DNA of 64,000 nt from an uncultured virus (IMG/VR IMGVR_UViG_3300032138_000963). Its lineage: Duplodnaviria; Heunggongvirae; Uroviricota; Caudoviricetes. Below, one piece after another: positions 18,671-24,983 of this stretch; within the stretch, counting starts at the first letter, position 1; the number at the start of each line of letters is the position of its first letter. The notes beneath the pieces were generated by a model. It saw nothing but the letters and a program-made list of their open reading frames with translations, made no database searches and had not been told where the DNA came from. The stretch lies in IMG/VR virus record IMGVR_UViG_3300032138_000963, one strand, 5' to 3'. Position numbers and translations under genes: made by a program.

Positions 18671-19654
18671 TCAGCATCCTGGATTGTTGATGTGGGAGGG
18701 GATCTTCCTTGCCACCTTGGACGGGGACTTTGGGTTCGGGGCTCTCGCCACCCGCTTCCATGTCCCTTTCTTCGCCGTCTTCTTCTTCGCGGCCTTCTTC
18801 GCGGCCTTCTTTGCAGTCTTCTTCGTAGTCTTCTTCGTAGTCTTTTTGGAGACCTTCTTGGATCCCCGCTTGGCCTCAGCGGCCTTTCGGGCCTGGCGAC
18901 CCTCTGCGGCACGGGCTGCCTTGCGCCGCTTGGCCTCGCGCTCCTTTTTCCGAGCCAGCCTCTCTGCCGCAGCCTCATCTTTCTCTTGCTGCGCCTTGCC
19001 TCGCTTGGCCTCGCGCTCCTTCTCTCGCTTGAGCTTGGCCGCTCTGACTGCGTCCTGCTTGCGGCGACGTTCCCAGGCGCGCTCCCAGACCTTCCTGAGC
19101 CCCTCCTTGCTCGAGGGGAGGATGCTCAGCTGCCACTGGAACGAGCGCGTGGCCGCGTCCGCGTCGAGAACCCTGGTGACCTTCACGCTTCCCGGAGATC
19201 CAACCACCTTGACCTCGGAACCCTGGGCCCCCCGCTTGAGACGAATGCTGTCGCCCGGAACGCGAGTCACGTCCAGCTCGGCCACATACTTCTTGCCCTC
19301 ATTCTTGCCGGCGAGGGCAAGCTCAGGGCTACAGGCGATACTGAATCGCCCGGCCGCGATCTGCCTGCGCTCCGGCTCTCCGATATGGAATCTCTTTTCG
19401 TCGGTAGCGTACCAGTACAGACCTCGAGCGCACGCGTCCCAATACGCCTTTGCGAAGTCCTCGAATTTTCGAAACCTCGTTGCCTCTGCAGCGAGCGCGT
19501 CCTTGACCTTCGAGTTCCGCGGGTTGGCCCGGCGACCTCGAGTCCGCCCAAGGTGAACGTCGAGCGCACCCTGCAGATCTGGGCTCGCTTTTGGATTCGT
19601 TTTCACCTTGGCCATTTTACCGCGCTTTCGCCGGGTCATCGTAGCAGATTTCAC
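18671..19654 (-). CDS. Basic protein with histone-H1-like tail and 4 Asn-Pro motifs
   Basis: KKTTKK/KKAAKK repeats; KTNP, RANP, APNP, INNP. Confidence 0.8.
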   Translation of the reverse strand: MKSATMTRRKRGKMAKVKTNPKASPDLQGALDVHLGRTRGRRANPRNSKVKDALAAEATRFRKFEDFAKAYWDACARGLYWYATDEKRFHIGEPERRQIAAGRFSIACSPELALAGKNEGKKYVAELDVTRVPGDSIRLKRGAQGSEVKVVGSPGSVKVTRVLDADAATRSFQWQLSILPSSKEGLRKVWERAWERRRKQDAVRAAKLKREKEREAKRGKAQQEKDEAAAERLARKKEREAKRRKAARAAEGRQARKAAEAKRGSKKVSKKTTKKTTKKTAKKAAKKAAKKKTAKKGTWKRVARAPNPKSPSKVARKIPSHINNPGC

Positions 19655-19687
19655 AGTTGTGCGGGCGTGCTAGAAACGGCTTGGTCA

Positions 19688-19993
19688 TCAGATCTCACCG
19701 AGGGCAAGTAGGTTCTGGTAGAGGATGTGGGCCGTGTATGGATCTTTTTGCTTCGGCTTGTATTTGCCAGCACGAATCAAAGGTTCTAACTCCTCGAAGG
19801 TTGGCCCGTCTTCCTCCTCCTCGTCGTCATAGTCGTCCCCGTAAAACCTCGTGCGGATCGGGCGAGGGGCCGCGTACCTTCGACGAGGCTTCGCCTCTTC
19901 CTCATCCTCCTCGTCTTCGTCCTCTTCCTCGAGTCCGTCAAACGTCAGGATGTCGTCATCGTCTTCCTGTTTCTTCTTCCTCCAACGACGCAT
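19688..19993 (-). CDS. Small acidic protein
   Basis: D/E runs; fills the gap in the operon. Confidence 0.6.
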   Translation of the reverse strand: MRRWRKKKQEDDDDILTFDGLEEEDEDEEDEEEAKPRRRYAAPRPIRTRFYGDDYDDEEEEDGPTFEELEPLIRAGKYKPKQKDPYTAHILYQNLLALGEI

Positions 19994-20008
19994 CGTATTC
20001 TCCTACTT

Positions 20009-22096: not shown

Positions 22097-22097
22097 G

Positions 22098-23678
22098 TCA
22101 CTTCACCTTCAGGCGCTTGGCCTCTTTGTTGGCGACGCGGAGGCAGCGGCTGCGCTCCTTCTTGACCTTCTCGCTCTTCGAGGACTTCATCTTCTCGAGG
22201 TGCTCGAGTACGGCGCGAAGATTCTTCTTGGTGGGCTTTTCGCAGTACGCGTCCCAAAGCTTTTGGCAACGGTTGATGAGCAACGTCGACGGCGGAGTCT
22301 TCTTGCGCGCAGGCTTCTTCTTGGCCGGCTTGGTCAGCACGATATCCTCGGCCGCCTTGGCCGCCGAGAAGGCCGACGTGTATTTCGGCTCCTCGACAAC
22401 CTTGATCGGACGAAGGTTTTGGTCGACCACGAAAGACCCCCACTTCTTCCCCTCAAGAAACACAGCAAGCGTTCGAATGGGGTCCTCGTGAATGATCTGG
22501 CTGACCATGAATCCTGGCTGGAGTTCTCCCCATCCGAGACGCAGCTTCTTTTTCTGTGTCGCAGAAAAGCTCTTAGCCTTCTCCGGATTCTTCTTCGGCT
22601 TGGTCTGCCGCTCAGCCGATTCCTCGAGCGCCTTGAGCAGCTCGTCCGTGTCCTTGCCGTGGAAGTGCAGGCCGATGCACGGATTCTTCTTGCGACGCCC
22701 CTTCGGACGAAGCGCCTCGAGTGCCTTGCGCAGATTCCGAAGGTCGGTGGCAAACTTGCGCCGGTCGGCGGTAGCCCAATCAGCCTTGGCCTTCGGAGTG
22801 AACTGCCTGGAGAACGTCTCGAGTTCGCGTTGGAGATTGTCGATGCCGCCCGAGGTTACGTCCCCCTGGCTGTATTCCTGAATGACAACGACGAAGTCGC
22901 GGACGCCCTTCTTTGCGTCGGCGTAGGTCTTGAGAACCTTGCGAGGTTTGGTTCGGTTATGGATATCCTTGATGCGCTTGGCCACGCGCTCCATCCCTCT
23001 GCGGATGGATTCGCCGCGACGGAACTTCACATCTAGCCCGCGGATCTGCGCCGTGACCCACTCAATATCCTCTTTGACTTCCGCGCGAGTGTCTTTCTTC
23101 GCGTGCTTGTAGACCCTTTTCCACTCCTCGACGAGCTTGCCGAAAACCTCAGCCTCTTCGGACTTGCGGCGCGACTTCTCGTCGACCTTCTTGCCCGGCT
23201 TTCGAATGACGATGCCGGAGTCCTGTTCGAGCGTGAGAACAGCGCCCATAACCTTGCCCAGATCCCCGCGGATATCGGACCCCCTCTTCTTCGCCTTCTG
23301 CTCGACCTTGAATATCGCCTTGTCGATGTCGTGGATGTGCTCCTGGTTGAACGAGGCTCCAGGAGAGTTCCGGATGATATCCATTCGCTCCCTAATCCGC
23401 CGCAGCATGATCTTGCTGTGCTGCACGATGCGGCGATCCAACTCGCGGAGCCGCAACTTGCTTCCAGCGATCGTCGTACGAAGCTCTCGCGGAACGGACT
23501 GCTTGTTGGCGCGGAGATTCTCCCGAATGTCCTCGTAGTGATTCAGATCGCGCTGCGTCTGCTTGTACTCTTCGTACACCGCGTCGATGGCTGAGCCGGA
23601 TTCATGGACCACATCGTCGATGTCGCGGCCCAGGTTCCTGGCGTCGTCCGGGTTGAGCTTTCTCGTTCGTTTGGCCAT
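22098..23678 (-). CDS. Basic helical protein with 3 Asn-Pro motifs; C-terminal module shared with the downstream gene
   Basis: RCQKLWDAYCEKPTKKNL...CLRVANKEAKRLK. Confidence 0.85.
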   Translation of the reverse strand: MAKRTRKLNPDDARNLGRDIDDVVHESGSAIDAVYEEYKQTQRDLNHYEDIRENLRANKQSVPRELRTTIAGSKLRLRELDRRIVQHSKIMLRRIRERMDIIRNSPGASFNQEHIHDIDKAIFKVEQKAKKRGSDIRGDLGKVMGAVLTLEQDSGIVIRKPGKKVDEKSRRKSEEAEVFGKLVEEWKRVYKHAKKDTRAEVKEDIEWVTAQIRGLDVKFRRGESIRRGMERVAKRIKDIHNRTKPRKVLKTYADAKKGVRDFVVVIQEYSQGDVTSGGIDNLQRELETFSRQFTPKAKADWATADRRKFATDLRNLRKALEALRPKGRRKKNPCIGLHFHGKDTDELLKALEESAERQTKPKKNPEKAKSFSATQKKKLRLGWGELQPGFMVSQIIHEDPIRTLAVFLEGKKWGSFVVDQNLRPIKVVEEPKYTSAFSAAKAAEDIVLTKPAKKKPARKKTPPSTLLINRCQKLWDAYCEKPTKKNLRAVLEHLEKMKSSKSEKVKKERSRCLRVANKEAKRLKVK

Positions 23679-23681
23679 CGG

Positions 23682-24983
23682 CTAGCTCTTGTTTCGCTTT
23701 CGCAGCTCTTGTCGAGCCAACTTGATTCTCGCCCTGGCCTGCGCAACTCCATCGGTGTCACCGGCGTGCTGGAGTTCCTCGCGGGCAATCTCCAGATGCT
23801 TGTAGGCGTTGAGCAGATCCGTGACGTTGCAGCTGTCGCAGTACTTCTTCCAGCAAGCGTCAGCCTTTTCCATATGCGAGTTGCCCATCTCCCGATGGTC
23901 ACCCTGCGAGGGGTTAGACTTTCGCTTGCTCAGCTCCCGAGTGCATGTCTTGAACATCTCGATGATGTTGCGCCGGAGCGAACTCTTCCTATCCATCGCC
24001 TTGTCGGCGCGACCTTTCTCCTCTCCGAGCACGAAGTTTGCTCGGGCGTTTTCGATGTGGTCGTATGCCTTCATGACCGCCGCGAAATCGGGCTTACCGG
24101 CCTTCAGGGATTCATTCCACCGAGCCTGCCACTCCTCGGATTTCTCGAGAGCCTTTTTTGCCTGCTTGATCGCGGCGGATTCGGATCGTCGAAATGAGAA
24201 TGGATTCGATGGATTTCCCTTCGGAATGTAGACGAGCTTGCGGCCGCGGGCGGGCTTCCCGGGTTCTGACGGCCGACGCATGCGCTCGGACTTTCCGACC
24301 TTCGCCTTTCTGCGGCCTTCGCGGACGCGTTCGCGGCGCCGCTCCTCTGCGGCGGCTTCGCTCTCGGCGGTAGTCTCGCGCTCCATAGCCTCGCGCTGAC
24401 CGGCCGTTCGGCGATGGATGCCTCCGCGCACCTTCTTCGACCTTCGCACCTTCTCGCGGGGCCTGATGCCCCTCTCGTCGTACCAGATCAGCGCGGTGTT
24501 GATGACGCGGCGAACGGCAACCTCGGCGGCGCCCTGGTCTGGGAATCGCTTGTTCAGAGCCGGGGAATCGAAGATCGGCGGCGCCCCGGGCGACGGGATG
24601 ATCTGTCGACCGCGTCGAGTGATTTTTGCGCCCCACTGTCCATCAGGAAGCTGGACGAGGACGTATCGAAATCCGTCATGCGTCCCTGAAACCTCCCGGC
24701 GCGGCTTTGCTTTGGATGTGCGTGAGACCTTCTTCTTCTTCCCCTCACGCTCGCGGTGGTACTTAGCCTCGGTCAACTCCCTCGACAGATTCGTCATCTC
24801 TCCGAGGAGCTGTGCCGCTCGAGCCTGACGCTCTGGCCCCTGGTCGAGCTTGAAGATCACGTCGGGACGGTGGACCTCGAATAGATCCTTCAGATCCCCC
24901 TCGCCGTCATCACCATGTCTGATGATTTCTGCAGACAGCCTCTTGAAGGCTTCCTTCGCCTTGTCTGGATTTTTTCGAGCCAT
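23682..24983 (-). CDS. Basic protein with 4 Asn-Pro motifs
   Basis: MARKNP, KGNPSNP, RKSNP. Confidence 0.85.
   Translation of the reverse strand: MARKNPDKAKEAFKRLSAEIIRHGDDGEGDLKDLFEVHRPDVIFKLDQGPERQARAAQLLGEMTNLSRELTEAKYHREREGKKKKVSRTSKAKPRREVSGTHDGFRYVLVQLPDGQWGAKITRRGRQIIPSPGAPPIFDSPALNKRFPDQGAAEVAVRRVINTALIWYDERGIRPREKVRRSKKVRGGIHRRTAGQREAMERETTAESEAAAEERRRERVREGRRKAKVGKSERMRRPSEPGKPARGRKLVYIPKGNPSNPFSFRRSESAAIKQAKKALEKSEEWQARWNESLKAGKPDFAAVMKAYDHIENARANFVLGEEKGRADKAMDRKSSLRRNIIEMFKTCTRELSKRKSNPSQGDHREMGNSHMEKADACWKKYCDSCNVTDLLNAYKHLEIAREELQHAGDTDGVAQARARIKLARQELRKRNKS

Follow-up and report, generated by a model that had tools for sequence, protein, structure and literature searches.

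In a 64,000-nucleotide stretch of DNA from an uncultured virus of the Caudoviricetes (IMG/VR record IMGVR_UViG_3300032138_000963; the whole stretch is called the window here), four consecutive open reading frames (ORFs) on the minus strand encode the basic proteins P4, P3, P2 and P1, which have a Lys+Arg content of 24-29% and together comprise 1981 aa. We show that the dipeptide Asn-Pro (NP) serves in these proteins as a selected, Asn-specific seam at the protein level, with the meaning 'module starts here'. It is quite possible, and our tentative preference, that the seam is also a processing site at which the chain would be cut between Asn and Pro, by self-cleavage or by a protease.

NP occurs 4, 10, 3 and 4 times in P1, P2, P3 and P4, respectively, giving 21 copies. 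Composition-preserving shuffles of each protein (20,000 in total) led to an expectation of 2.60 +/- 1.56 (z = 11.9) and a maximum of 11; as no shuffle reached 21, a composition artefact was rejected. Among all 400 dipeptides NP was the top outlier, with YC as runner-up at 5.6. Asn stands before Pro in 21 of 57 cases (37%) in P1-P4 and in 51 of 516 (9.9%) in 70 other ORFs of the window (Fisher p = 4.8e-7), the latter being a greedy longest-ORF call that includes some spurious frames. An earlier, sequence-only reading of this DNA, which had counted 21 NP in about 1980 aa and had taken them for a processing or sorting signal at module boundaries, was exact in its count, and all strings it had quoted (MARKNP, RKLNP, RKKNP, RRSNP, RKPNP, RRFNP, RKSNP) are present. 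As it had stated, three of the four proteins carry an NP no more than 20 residues from the start (N5, N9 and N20); its description of NP as lying mostly just after basic runs is roughly right, with at least two Lys or Arg within the five preceding residues at 12 of the 21 sites. That reading had itself named in advance, as refuting, a lack of enrichment over composition, NP buried inside folded domains and a lack of conservation in homologues; all three tests came out in its favour, the last two as described below. At the seams Asn is encoded by AAT (13) or AAC (8) and Pro by CCA (8), CCG (8), CCT (3) or CCC (2). Since the codons of both residues vary synonymously, selection for NP is at the protein level, and a motif at the DNA level was rejected. 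A/T-ending codons are nevertheless over-used at the seams in this region of 58% G+C, with AAT at 13 of 21 seams vs 10 of 36 other Asn and CCA at 8 of 21 seam Pro vs 7 of 69 other Pro. Asn-Gly is absent from P1-P4 (0 vs 3.5 expected).

Searches of a large protein collection yielded 28 relatives of P2, 47 of P3 and 18 of P4, excluding the window's own proteins, and the family set analysed consisted of 90 distinct proteins, including P2, P3 and P4 of the window and many encoded on contigs of 100-220 kb. No match to P2 was obtained by tblastn in 50,697 phage records or in a scan of GTDB genomes with the alignment of the P2 family, a single IMG/VR locus matched P2 over 28 residues, and the ESM Atlas gave no usable match to P3. 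Within the family set, 550 of 1611 Asn (34%) precede Pro, compared with 5.0% of Ser, 6.8% of Thr and 4.0% of Asp at an overall Pro content of 4.7%. From 362 non-redundant sites the consensus [R/A/P]-[K/R]-[K/S/G]-N-P was derived, in which position -2 is Lys or Arg in 58% and the information is confined to positions -3 to +1. In 48 of the 90 proteins the first NP lies no more than 20 residues from the start, the usual form being MA-(K/R)n-x-NP, and tandems such as NPSNP and NPGxNP are common. In three family alignments the seam Asn was retained in 255 of 290 aligned cells, the seam Pro still more often, and Ser, Thr or Asp took the place of the Asn in 11 cells. The mean conservation of seam Asn was 0.83, 0.97 and 0.82 in these alignments vs 0.40, 0.27 and 0.45 for other Asn, and the homologues that retain the NP pairs span 30-80% identity. 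N215, N326, N414, N494, N502 and N562 of P2 are invariant, together with their Pro, in the eight closest relatives. Chains of this format can greatly exceed the lengths seen in the window: one relative (L006:402-4373), open at the contig end, has more than 1324 aa, with 19 NP among its 45 Asn.

An AlphaFold2 (AF2) model of P2, built from a 26-sequence alignment (mean predicted local distance difference test score, pLDDT, 74), consists of a chain of about ten confident small folds with short dips in between. Eight of the ten NP fall into segments with pLDDT <50, although these account for just 25% of the chain length (binomial p = 4e-4), and the remaining two lie no more than 4 residues from such a segment; none of the 9 other Asn of P2 was located in one. 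Seen from the segments, 9 of the 11 internal low-confidence stretches have an NP no more than 4 residues away. The NP of P4 (model pLDDT 81) are likewise found in linkers or at linker edges, so that the dipeptide marks module boundaries and is not buried in folds. The Asn directly caps the next helix at 4-5 of 14 modelled seams (P4 N5; P2 N72, N264 and N562), and most modelled seams lie 5-15 residues upstream of it. Foldseek comparison of both models with the PDB gave no match at E <= 0.001; hits to P4 were generic helical repeats and those to P2 local matches of its winged helix to IclR and Z-alpha winged helices (prob 1.0, but E ~0.1). Pfam matches of the four proteins and of 55 homologues were confined to weak or small non-enzymatic ones (HTH, ChaB, DUF465, DUF5872, DUF456, Gly-zipper).

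That the seams are joints between exchangeable units is seen from the relatives. In the P2 alignment an NP opens all five module-sized insertions and closes three of them as well; one of the five repeats a complete NP-to-NP unit in tandem. Two homologues of P1 (L002:14483-16426 and L003:10933-12978) carry an N-terminal adenylation domain of an ATP-dependent DNA ligase (Pfam E 5e-22 and 8e-25), joined to the P1 part by a basic run and NP (...KRGKMAKVKRNP...), and the homologue in a third metagenome locus, L004, has a winged helix in place of the ligase domain. Two modules of P2, the ChaB-like and the phrog_2423-like one (residues 415-565), also exist as separate proteins: a full HMMER search with this region led to 72 proteins, many of them small and free-standing. 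When both modules were mapped on 147 proteins, 95 copies were obtained: 53 internal ones with NP in front, and 27 at the very start of their protein, which then begins with Met-Pro. An internal Met-Pro was found for 7 copies; four of these, at residues 34-55 of short proteins (84-104 aa), are probably mis-called starts, and another is P2's own copy, with an NP 17 residues upstream. The remaining 8 show neither dipeptide, two of them having an NP a few residues upstream and one an alternative start codon followed by Pro. The registers of internal and starting copies coincide, NPLKK(I/V)P corresponding to MPLKKG and NPLGTL to MPLGTL. Free-standing homologues of the phrog_2423-like module were also detected by tblastn in 4 phage records (E 7e-5 to 8e-3), whereas a search with the ChaB-like module gave no relatives among cultured phages; copies in an IMG/VR contig, a P22-like record and Ralstonia phage RSB1 start with MPL and end in a basic tail. 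As read from these sequences, the building block is Pro, a fold and a basic tail, with Asn replacing the start Met at the joints, and an N-terminal leader resembles a unit of which just the basic tail and the Asn are left. Because a change from ATG to AAT or AAC needs two base changes, and both Asn codons are used, the seam Asn is selected and no scar of gene fusion.

In the mechanism we favour, P1-P4 would be strings of small, mostly helical modules, in which a block that opens a protein carries Met-Pro and one that lies internally, or behind a short basic leader (MA and a K/R run), carries Asn-Pro. The Asn side chain would attack its own peptide bond, by the chemistry of FlhB/YscU, RsgI and reovirus mu1, or a protease would cut there. 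The products would be small basic proteins with an N-terminal Pro, as Met removal would yield for the free-standing versions. Before any cut, the C-terminal three-helix tag probably directs the whole chain to a shared location. Such cleavage would explain the Asn specificity, the Met/Asn equivalence, as both would lead to an N-terminal Pro, and the N-terminal leaders. A stronger form, namely a protease-free polyprotein code of a lineage of large uncultured viruses, whose joints would break by themselves (by Asn attack helped by basic neighbours, or on the ribosome) into up to ten or more small DNA-binding proteins with an N-terminal Pro, we regard as unlikely.

Several points weigh against cleavage. 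It is a prediction from the sequence. PHROGs, Pfam and NCBIfam revealed no maturation or prohead protease in the 64-kb window, which belongs to a source contig of about 168 kb, and the only protease found in the window and the syntenic block of its relatives is an M23 peptidase, which was set aside as processing enzyme on account of its membrane anchor and peptidoglycan-type relatives. Spontaneous cleavage at Asn-Pro in free peptides is slow. The seams here are many and lie in predicted disordered linkers, whereas the self-cleaving Asn-Pro bonds described in the available text of a published account are single sites within folded turns (PMC10328401). Some cuts would free tiny pieces, for instance the first five residues of P4 (MARKN) or the last three of P1 (PGC), and tandem NPxNP pairs are frequent. 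The conserved C-terminal tag and the N-terminal leaders would also fit a protein that works uncut, and the tag, being common to several proteins, suggests a function of the whole chain, at least initially. None of the 147 proteins ends in Asn, so no gene among them encodes a pre-cut unit, and the Met/Asn equivalence was tested for two of about fifteen module types. From the earlier proposal the processing or sorting signal at module boundaries survives, strengthened by the equivalence of Met-Pro and Asn-Pro, and cleavage itself stays a prediction.

The alternative that survives best is an insulating linker that stays uncut. Here an Asx-Pro turn, or an Asn helix N-cap with Pro at N1, would end the basic linker, the modules would fold independently, and the intact protein would bind DNA at many points like beads on a string. 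The position of NP in linkers directly ahead of folded modules, the helix caps at 4-5 of the 14 modelled seams and the negative protease search of the window all agree with this, and the conserved C-terminal tag and multi-module design would suit a multivalent intact protein. We nevertheless consider it somewhat unlikely, as Ser, Thr and Asp are equally good caps but are not enriched before Pro in the family set, and they replace the seam Asn in merely 11 of 290 cells; the same two observations weaken a generic helix cap or Asx/ST turn. Moreover, most seams lie 5-15 residues ahead of the helix and hence are no caps, and an insulating linker leaves unexplained the Asn at the position of a start Met and the NP three residues from the C-terminus of P1.

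Rather improbable in our view is that [R/A/P]-[K/R]-x-Asn-Pro is a docking motif, repeated for avidity and recognised by a partner, with a role in sorting or condensation. Turns based on NP do serve as docking motifs in eukaryotes (NPF, NPxY), and the motif here is short, conserved, present in many copies per protein, often in tandem, located in disordered regions and flanked by basic residues (58% K/R at -2). The partner could be the C-terminal tag, an acidic 101-aa protein whose gene is a constant member of the cluster, a capsid or portal protein, or the minor groove of DNA in the manner of SPKK or AT-hook motifs. These are candidates only, however, and the motif is tied to module starts instead of being spread along the linkers. 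With strict conservation limited to Asn and Pro, it holds little information by which a partner could recognise it specifically, and the equivalence of Met and Asn is not predicted by docking.

A translational seam, at which the ribosome would leave the Asn-Pro bond unformed after a polybasic nascent stretch and release separate products in the manner of 2A (NPG/P), appears highly improbable. Proline is a poor acceptor, polybasic runs slow ribosomes, the downstream product at 2A sites starts with Pro, and the over-use of AAT and CCA at the seams would be compatible with such a mechanism. On the other hand, there is no conserved upstream peptide of 2A length but about four informative positions, NPG is found at 3 and NPGP at none of the 21 seams, and 2A is not known to act on bacterial ribosomes. 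Finally, chance, composition, low complexity or a repeated nucleotide motif is next to inconceivable as the source of the NP excess, since even proteins as biased as these (24-29% K+R) never reached the observed number upon shuffling and the dipeptide is conserved over homologues at 30-80% identity.

Table 1. Proteins, Asn-Pro seams and modules of the P1-P4 cluster, with positions in the window; N and P with numbers are residues of the respective protein.
Feature	Positions	Strand	Description	Conservation or basis
P4	23682..24983	(-)	433 aa, basic modular, 24% K+R; NP at 5, 257, 260, 357	ORF, 18 homologues, AF2 model
P4 N5-P6 (MARKNP)	24966..24971	(-)	Asn caps helix 6-21	N kept 13/16
P4 N257-P258 + N260-P261 tandem (GNPSNP)	24201..24215	(-)	disordered linker 235-266	N257-P258 18/18, N260 9/17
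P4 N357	23910..23915	(-)	between helix 323-354 and C-terminal domain from 360	16/17
P4 C-terminal helical domain (CWKKYC...)	23685..23906	(-)	weak tag relative	E 0.087 only
P3	22098..23678	(-)	526 aa, basic modular; NP at 9, 332, 364	C-terminal tag common with P2
P3 N9 (MAKRTRKLNP)	23649..23654	(-)		kept 18/19
P3 N332 (RRKKNP)	22680..22685	(-)		kept 22/22
P3 N364 (KPKKNP)	22584..22589	(-)		kept 21/22
P3 C-terminal tag	22101..22295	(-)		65% identity to P2 tag
P2	20009..22096	(-)	695 aa, basic modular; NP at 72, 141, 215, 264, 326, 414, 494, 502, 562, 612	
P2 winged helix-turn-helix, residues 6-66	21899..22081	(-)	pLDDT ~90	Pfam HTH_IclR E 0.005 (below cutoff)
P2 N72	21878..21883	(-)	directly after winged-helix module	N kept 3/6
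P2 N141	21671..21676	(-)	3 residues ahead of low-confidence segment 144-155	9/15
P2 residues 156-205 (GIGGGIGALALGPIGAVAGAGIA)	21482..21631	(-)	basic stretch + glycine-zipper hydrophobic segment	nearly invariant
P2 N215 (KKRKKNP)	21449..21454	(-)	inserted module here in relatives, NP at each end	21/22
P2 N264	21302..21307	(-)	Asn caps helix 265-274	21/22
P2 N326 (RRRSNP)	21116..21121	(-)	start of low-confidence dip 326-332	17/17
P2 N414 (KRKPNP)	20852..20857	(-)	in dip 410-418, ahead of ChaB-like module	11/11
P2 ChaB-like module, residues 423-492	20621..20830	(-)		Pfam ChaB (PF06150) 16.7 bits, cutoff 27
P2 N494 (RRRFNP)	20612..20617	(-)	in dip 493-498	10/12
P2 N502 (ENPLKK)	20588..20593	(-)	Pro aligns with Pro2 of free-standing MPLKK... 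proteins	19/21
P2 phrog_2423-like module, residues 503-561 (ISKNI..AGRPQRQAVAI)	20414..20590	(-)		PHROG E 9.8e-8 over 518-549
P2 N562 (PYPNP)	20408..20413	(-)	start of dip 562-566	18/20
P2 N612	20258..20263	(-)	basic linker 586-622 ahead of C-terminal tag	9/13
P2 C-terminal three-helix tag (CQKLWDTYC...CLRVANKEAKRLK)	20012..20218	(-)	pLDDT ~95	
Acidic 101-aa ORF	19688..19993	(-)	between P2 and P1; 32 D+E, 18 K+R, no Asn	
P1	18671..19654	(-)	327 aa, basic; NP at 20, 44, 307, 324	
P1 N20 (MAKVKTNP)	19592..19597	(-)	joint to DNA ligase domain in L002 and L003	
P1 N44 (RRANPRNSKVKDALAAEA)	19520..19525	(-)		N44-P45 invariant 4/4
P1 conserved core, residues 44-200	19055..19525	(-)	behind ATP-dependent DNA ligase domain in two relatives	
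P1 lysine/alanine-rich tail (KKVSKKTTKKTTKKTAKKAAKKAAKKKTAKK)	18761..18871	(-)		
P1 N307 (APNP)	18731..18736	(-)	after K/A-rich tail	present 3/4
P1 N324 (NNPGC)	18680..18685	(-)	three residues from C-terminus	NNP invariant 4/4

The proteins and modules are listed in Table 1 together with the seams. The C-terminal tag is the sole matching part, always C-terminal, in many otherwise different proteins. Copies related to the ChaB-like module of P2 scored 37.8 (P0032), 30.8 and 28.5 bits with Pfam ChaB, and two fell just under the cutoff (26.7 and 25.6 bits). The glycine-zipper segment of P2 has lysine-run flanks within an otherwise soluble basic protein, and a relative matched Gly-zipper_YMGG at E 6e-4, below cutoff; if P2 were cut at N141 and N215, the unit released would be 73 residues long and membrane-active. 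P1 is listed with a GTG start, but its true start is probably Met14 (base 19615), giving MAKVKTNP, because leaders of the form MA-basic-NP are common in the family; in relatives the residues upstream of it (stretch 19615-19654) are part of the post-ligase linker.

DNA is most likely the target of the four proteins, because of the winged helices, the ChaB-like module, the K/A-rich tail of P1, which may resemble histone H1, the ligase fusion, a LigD-like neighbour and the location in a replication/repair operon. P1-P4 are co-oriented, as one leftward operon, with genes for a DnaQ-like exonuclease, ThyA, SSB and RusA, and in the metagenome loci L002, L003 and L004 the order lipoprotein, 69-aa protein, P4, P3, P2, acidic protein, P1, membrane protein and exonuclease is kept; the syntenic lipoprotein has 145 aa and the membrane protein 255 aa. 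The LigD-like neighbour (L002:12708-13439) has weak similarity to the LigD primase-polymerase (E 1.4e-4, below cutoff), and the cluster may belong to a set for DNA end-joining or repair. The gene for the acidic 101-aa protein holds the same place between P2 and P1 in every one of L002, L003, L004 and L008, and its product may pair with the basic proteins by matching their charge or act as their chaperone. The sequence-only reading had gone further and inferred that the four proteins release many small DNA-condensing proteins for the virion core, citing the maturation of core proteins at short repeated motifs in tailless double-stranded DNA viruses. The core assignment is unsupported, with the genes lying in a replication/repair operon and relatives fusing the P1 core to a DNA ligase; two free-standing copies of one module are located among structural genes elsewhere (in the P22-like record immediately behind the coat gene, and in the IMG/VR contig beside a gene read as tail-fibre-like), but the P1-P4 cluster is not. 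Nothing indicates a tailless virus, and the enzyme it had suspected in the ORF at 59671 has no family match in PHROGs, Pfam, NCBIfam or PDB sequences.

By PHROGs and Pfam the window further encodes thymidylate synthase, SSB, RusA, DnaQ-like exonuclease, RecT, helicase, primase, Fe/Mn superoxide dismutase (11529-12173, minus strand), GrpE (39727-40368, minus strand, E 2.8e-34), a protein with a Tad6-like domain of the Thoeris inhibitor family (40365-41123, minus strand, E 2.5e-26) and several cell-wall hydrolases, and no capsid, tail or terminase gene was among these matches in the 64 kb. Four cell-wall-directed proteins are encoded within 10 kb, namely the M23 peptidase with its N-terminal membrane anchor, a PG_binding_1 protein, a GH25 muramidase and an amidase_2 with PG-binding domain (25614-26627 and 27152-27907, plus strand; 28701-29861 and 34766-35878, minus strand). 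In the database, P2 and P3 are encoded on a contig of about 168 kb, and the window appears to come from a large phage whose bacterial host has peptidoglycan. On the plus strand, three tandem paralogues of 382, 369 and 405 aa (56201-57349, 57346-58455 and 58452-59669) share an N-terminal ...LPNPQAE.PFDR... and a C-terminal ...F.VE. ending; PHROGs, Pfam, NCBIfam and PDB sequences gave no family for them, and they may represent a so far undescribed kind of structural protein. Also on the plus strand, 60148-62070 encodes a proline- and cysteine-rich protein of 640 aa with a basic N-terminus (MPRKRRYSKSRGRR) and repeats of CC.....G.(I/L)VC(P/E)G ... HP/AKLPGGGAR.P.C, without a family match. NCBIfam gave no match for the ten proteins searched, and PDB sequence searches with the 59671 ORF, the 57346 paralogue and a free-standing ChaB-like protein gave nothing significant.

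Polyproteins are textbook knowledge for RNA viruses and for a part of the eukaryotic DNA viruses. Should the seams be cut, bacterial viruses of the tailed-phage type would have a true polyprotein strategy with a site code of their own, and a short Asn-Pro joint that cleaves itself or can be cleaved generically would be a useful tool for the co-expression of proteins in bacteria. If they are not cut, a simple and strongly conserved grammar remains, Pro, fold and basic tail joined by Asn, which allows module boundaries in hundreds of unannotated viral proteins to be read from sequence. The rule that a starting Met-Pro corresponds to an internal Asn-Pro is a concrete and cheap prediction.

Literature searches revealed nothing on such seams, or on a polyprotein strategy of this kind, in phages. 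The seams were compared with known systems of other kinds. The 2A 'StopGo' peptides of picornaviruses, with the consensus D(V/I)ExNPGP and a eukaryotic mechanism, also place an NP-containing seam between parts of one ORF and lead to a downstream product starting with Pro, but their consensus is absent from the seams here. Cleavage of retroviral Gag between MA and CA creates the N-terminal Pro of the capsid protein and so resembles the processing we favour, which would likewise act ahead of Pro and release a domain with a free N-terminal Pro; it differs in that an aspartic protease cuts a Tyr/Phe-Pro bond at one site of an unrelated sequence in an animal virus. The internal proteins of T4 carry N-terminal capsid-targeting leaders that are cut by gp21, and head proteins of phiKZ and SPN3US and the core proteins of adenovirus are further examples of such maturation. 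As in the T4 system, one short motif occurs in the leader and at internal sites of several neighbouring basic proteins, with MARKNP, MAKRTRKLNP and (M)AKVKTNP as leaders here and an NP within the first 20 residues in 48 of the 90 family proteins. In contrast, the motif is Asn-Pro and not L/I-x-E, A/S/G-x-E or GG-x, the genes lie among replication and repair genes and not in a head or late module. A prohead protease was not found in the 64-kb window, which is part of the source contig of about 168 kb.

FlhB, YscU and HrcU self-cleave at Asn-Pro (NPTH). The same type of cleavage is described for the periplasmic domain of RsgI, VP5 of aquareovirus and mu1 of reovirus in the text available of PMC10328401. 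Common to these proteins and ours is a strictly conserved, Asn-specific NP, cleavage of which leaves an N-terminal Pro in the known cases. FlhB/YscU, RsgI and mu1 have a single site in a folded turn with supporting residues, whereas 3-19 sites per protein lie in predicted disordered basic linkers here; NPTH occurs at none of the 21 sites, and neither Pfam nor Foldseek gave a match to the FlhB/YscU, RsgI or reovirus mu1 families. With respect to architecture, P1-P4 resemble the polyvalent proteins of phages, plasmids and conjugative elements. According to the passages searched in the original description, these carry two to fifteen distinct domains per polypeptide in mosaics that vary among relatives and are delivered into the host along with the DNA, and a metallopeptidase domain of their own is presumed to process them (Iyer et al., 2017; PMC5512222). 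In both cases many unrelated domains per phage polypeptide are shuffled between relatives (about ten folds in P2, with insertions and swaps among homologues), and release of domains by proteolysis has been proposed for the polyvalent ones. Their domains are enzymatic conflict domains (MPTase, methylases, helicases, ParB-like nucleases, SNF2, ART and lysozyme, among others), and in the searched passages of that paper the terms 'linker' and 'ChaB' do not occur (PMC5512222). The modules described here are small non-enzymatic folds, the ligase domain of two relatives being the sole enzyme; no peptidase domain was found by Pfam, and the joints carry a fixed Asn-Pro code, of which the correspondence between a starting Met-Pro and an internal Asn-Pro is the new point of this analysis.

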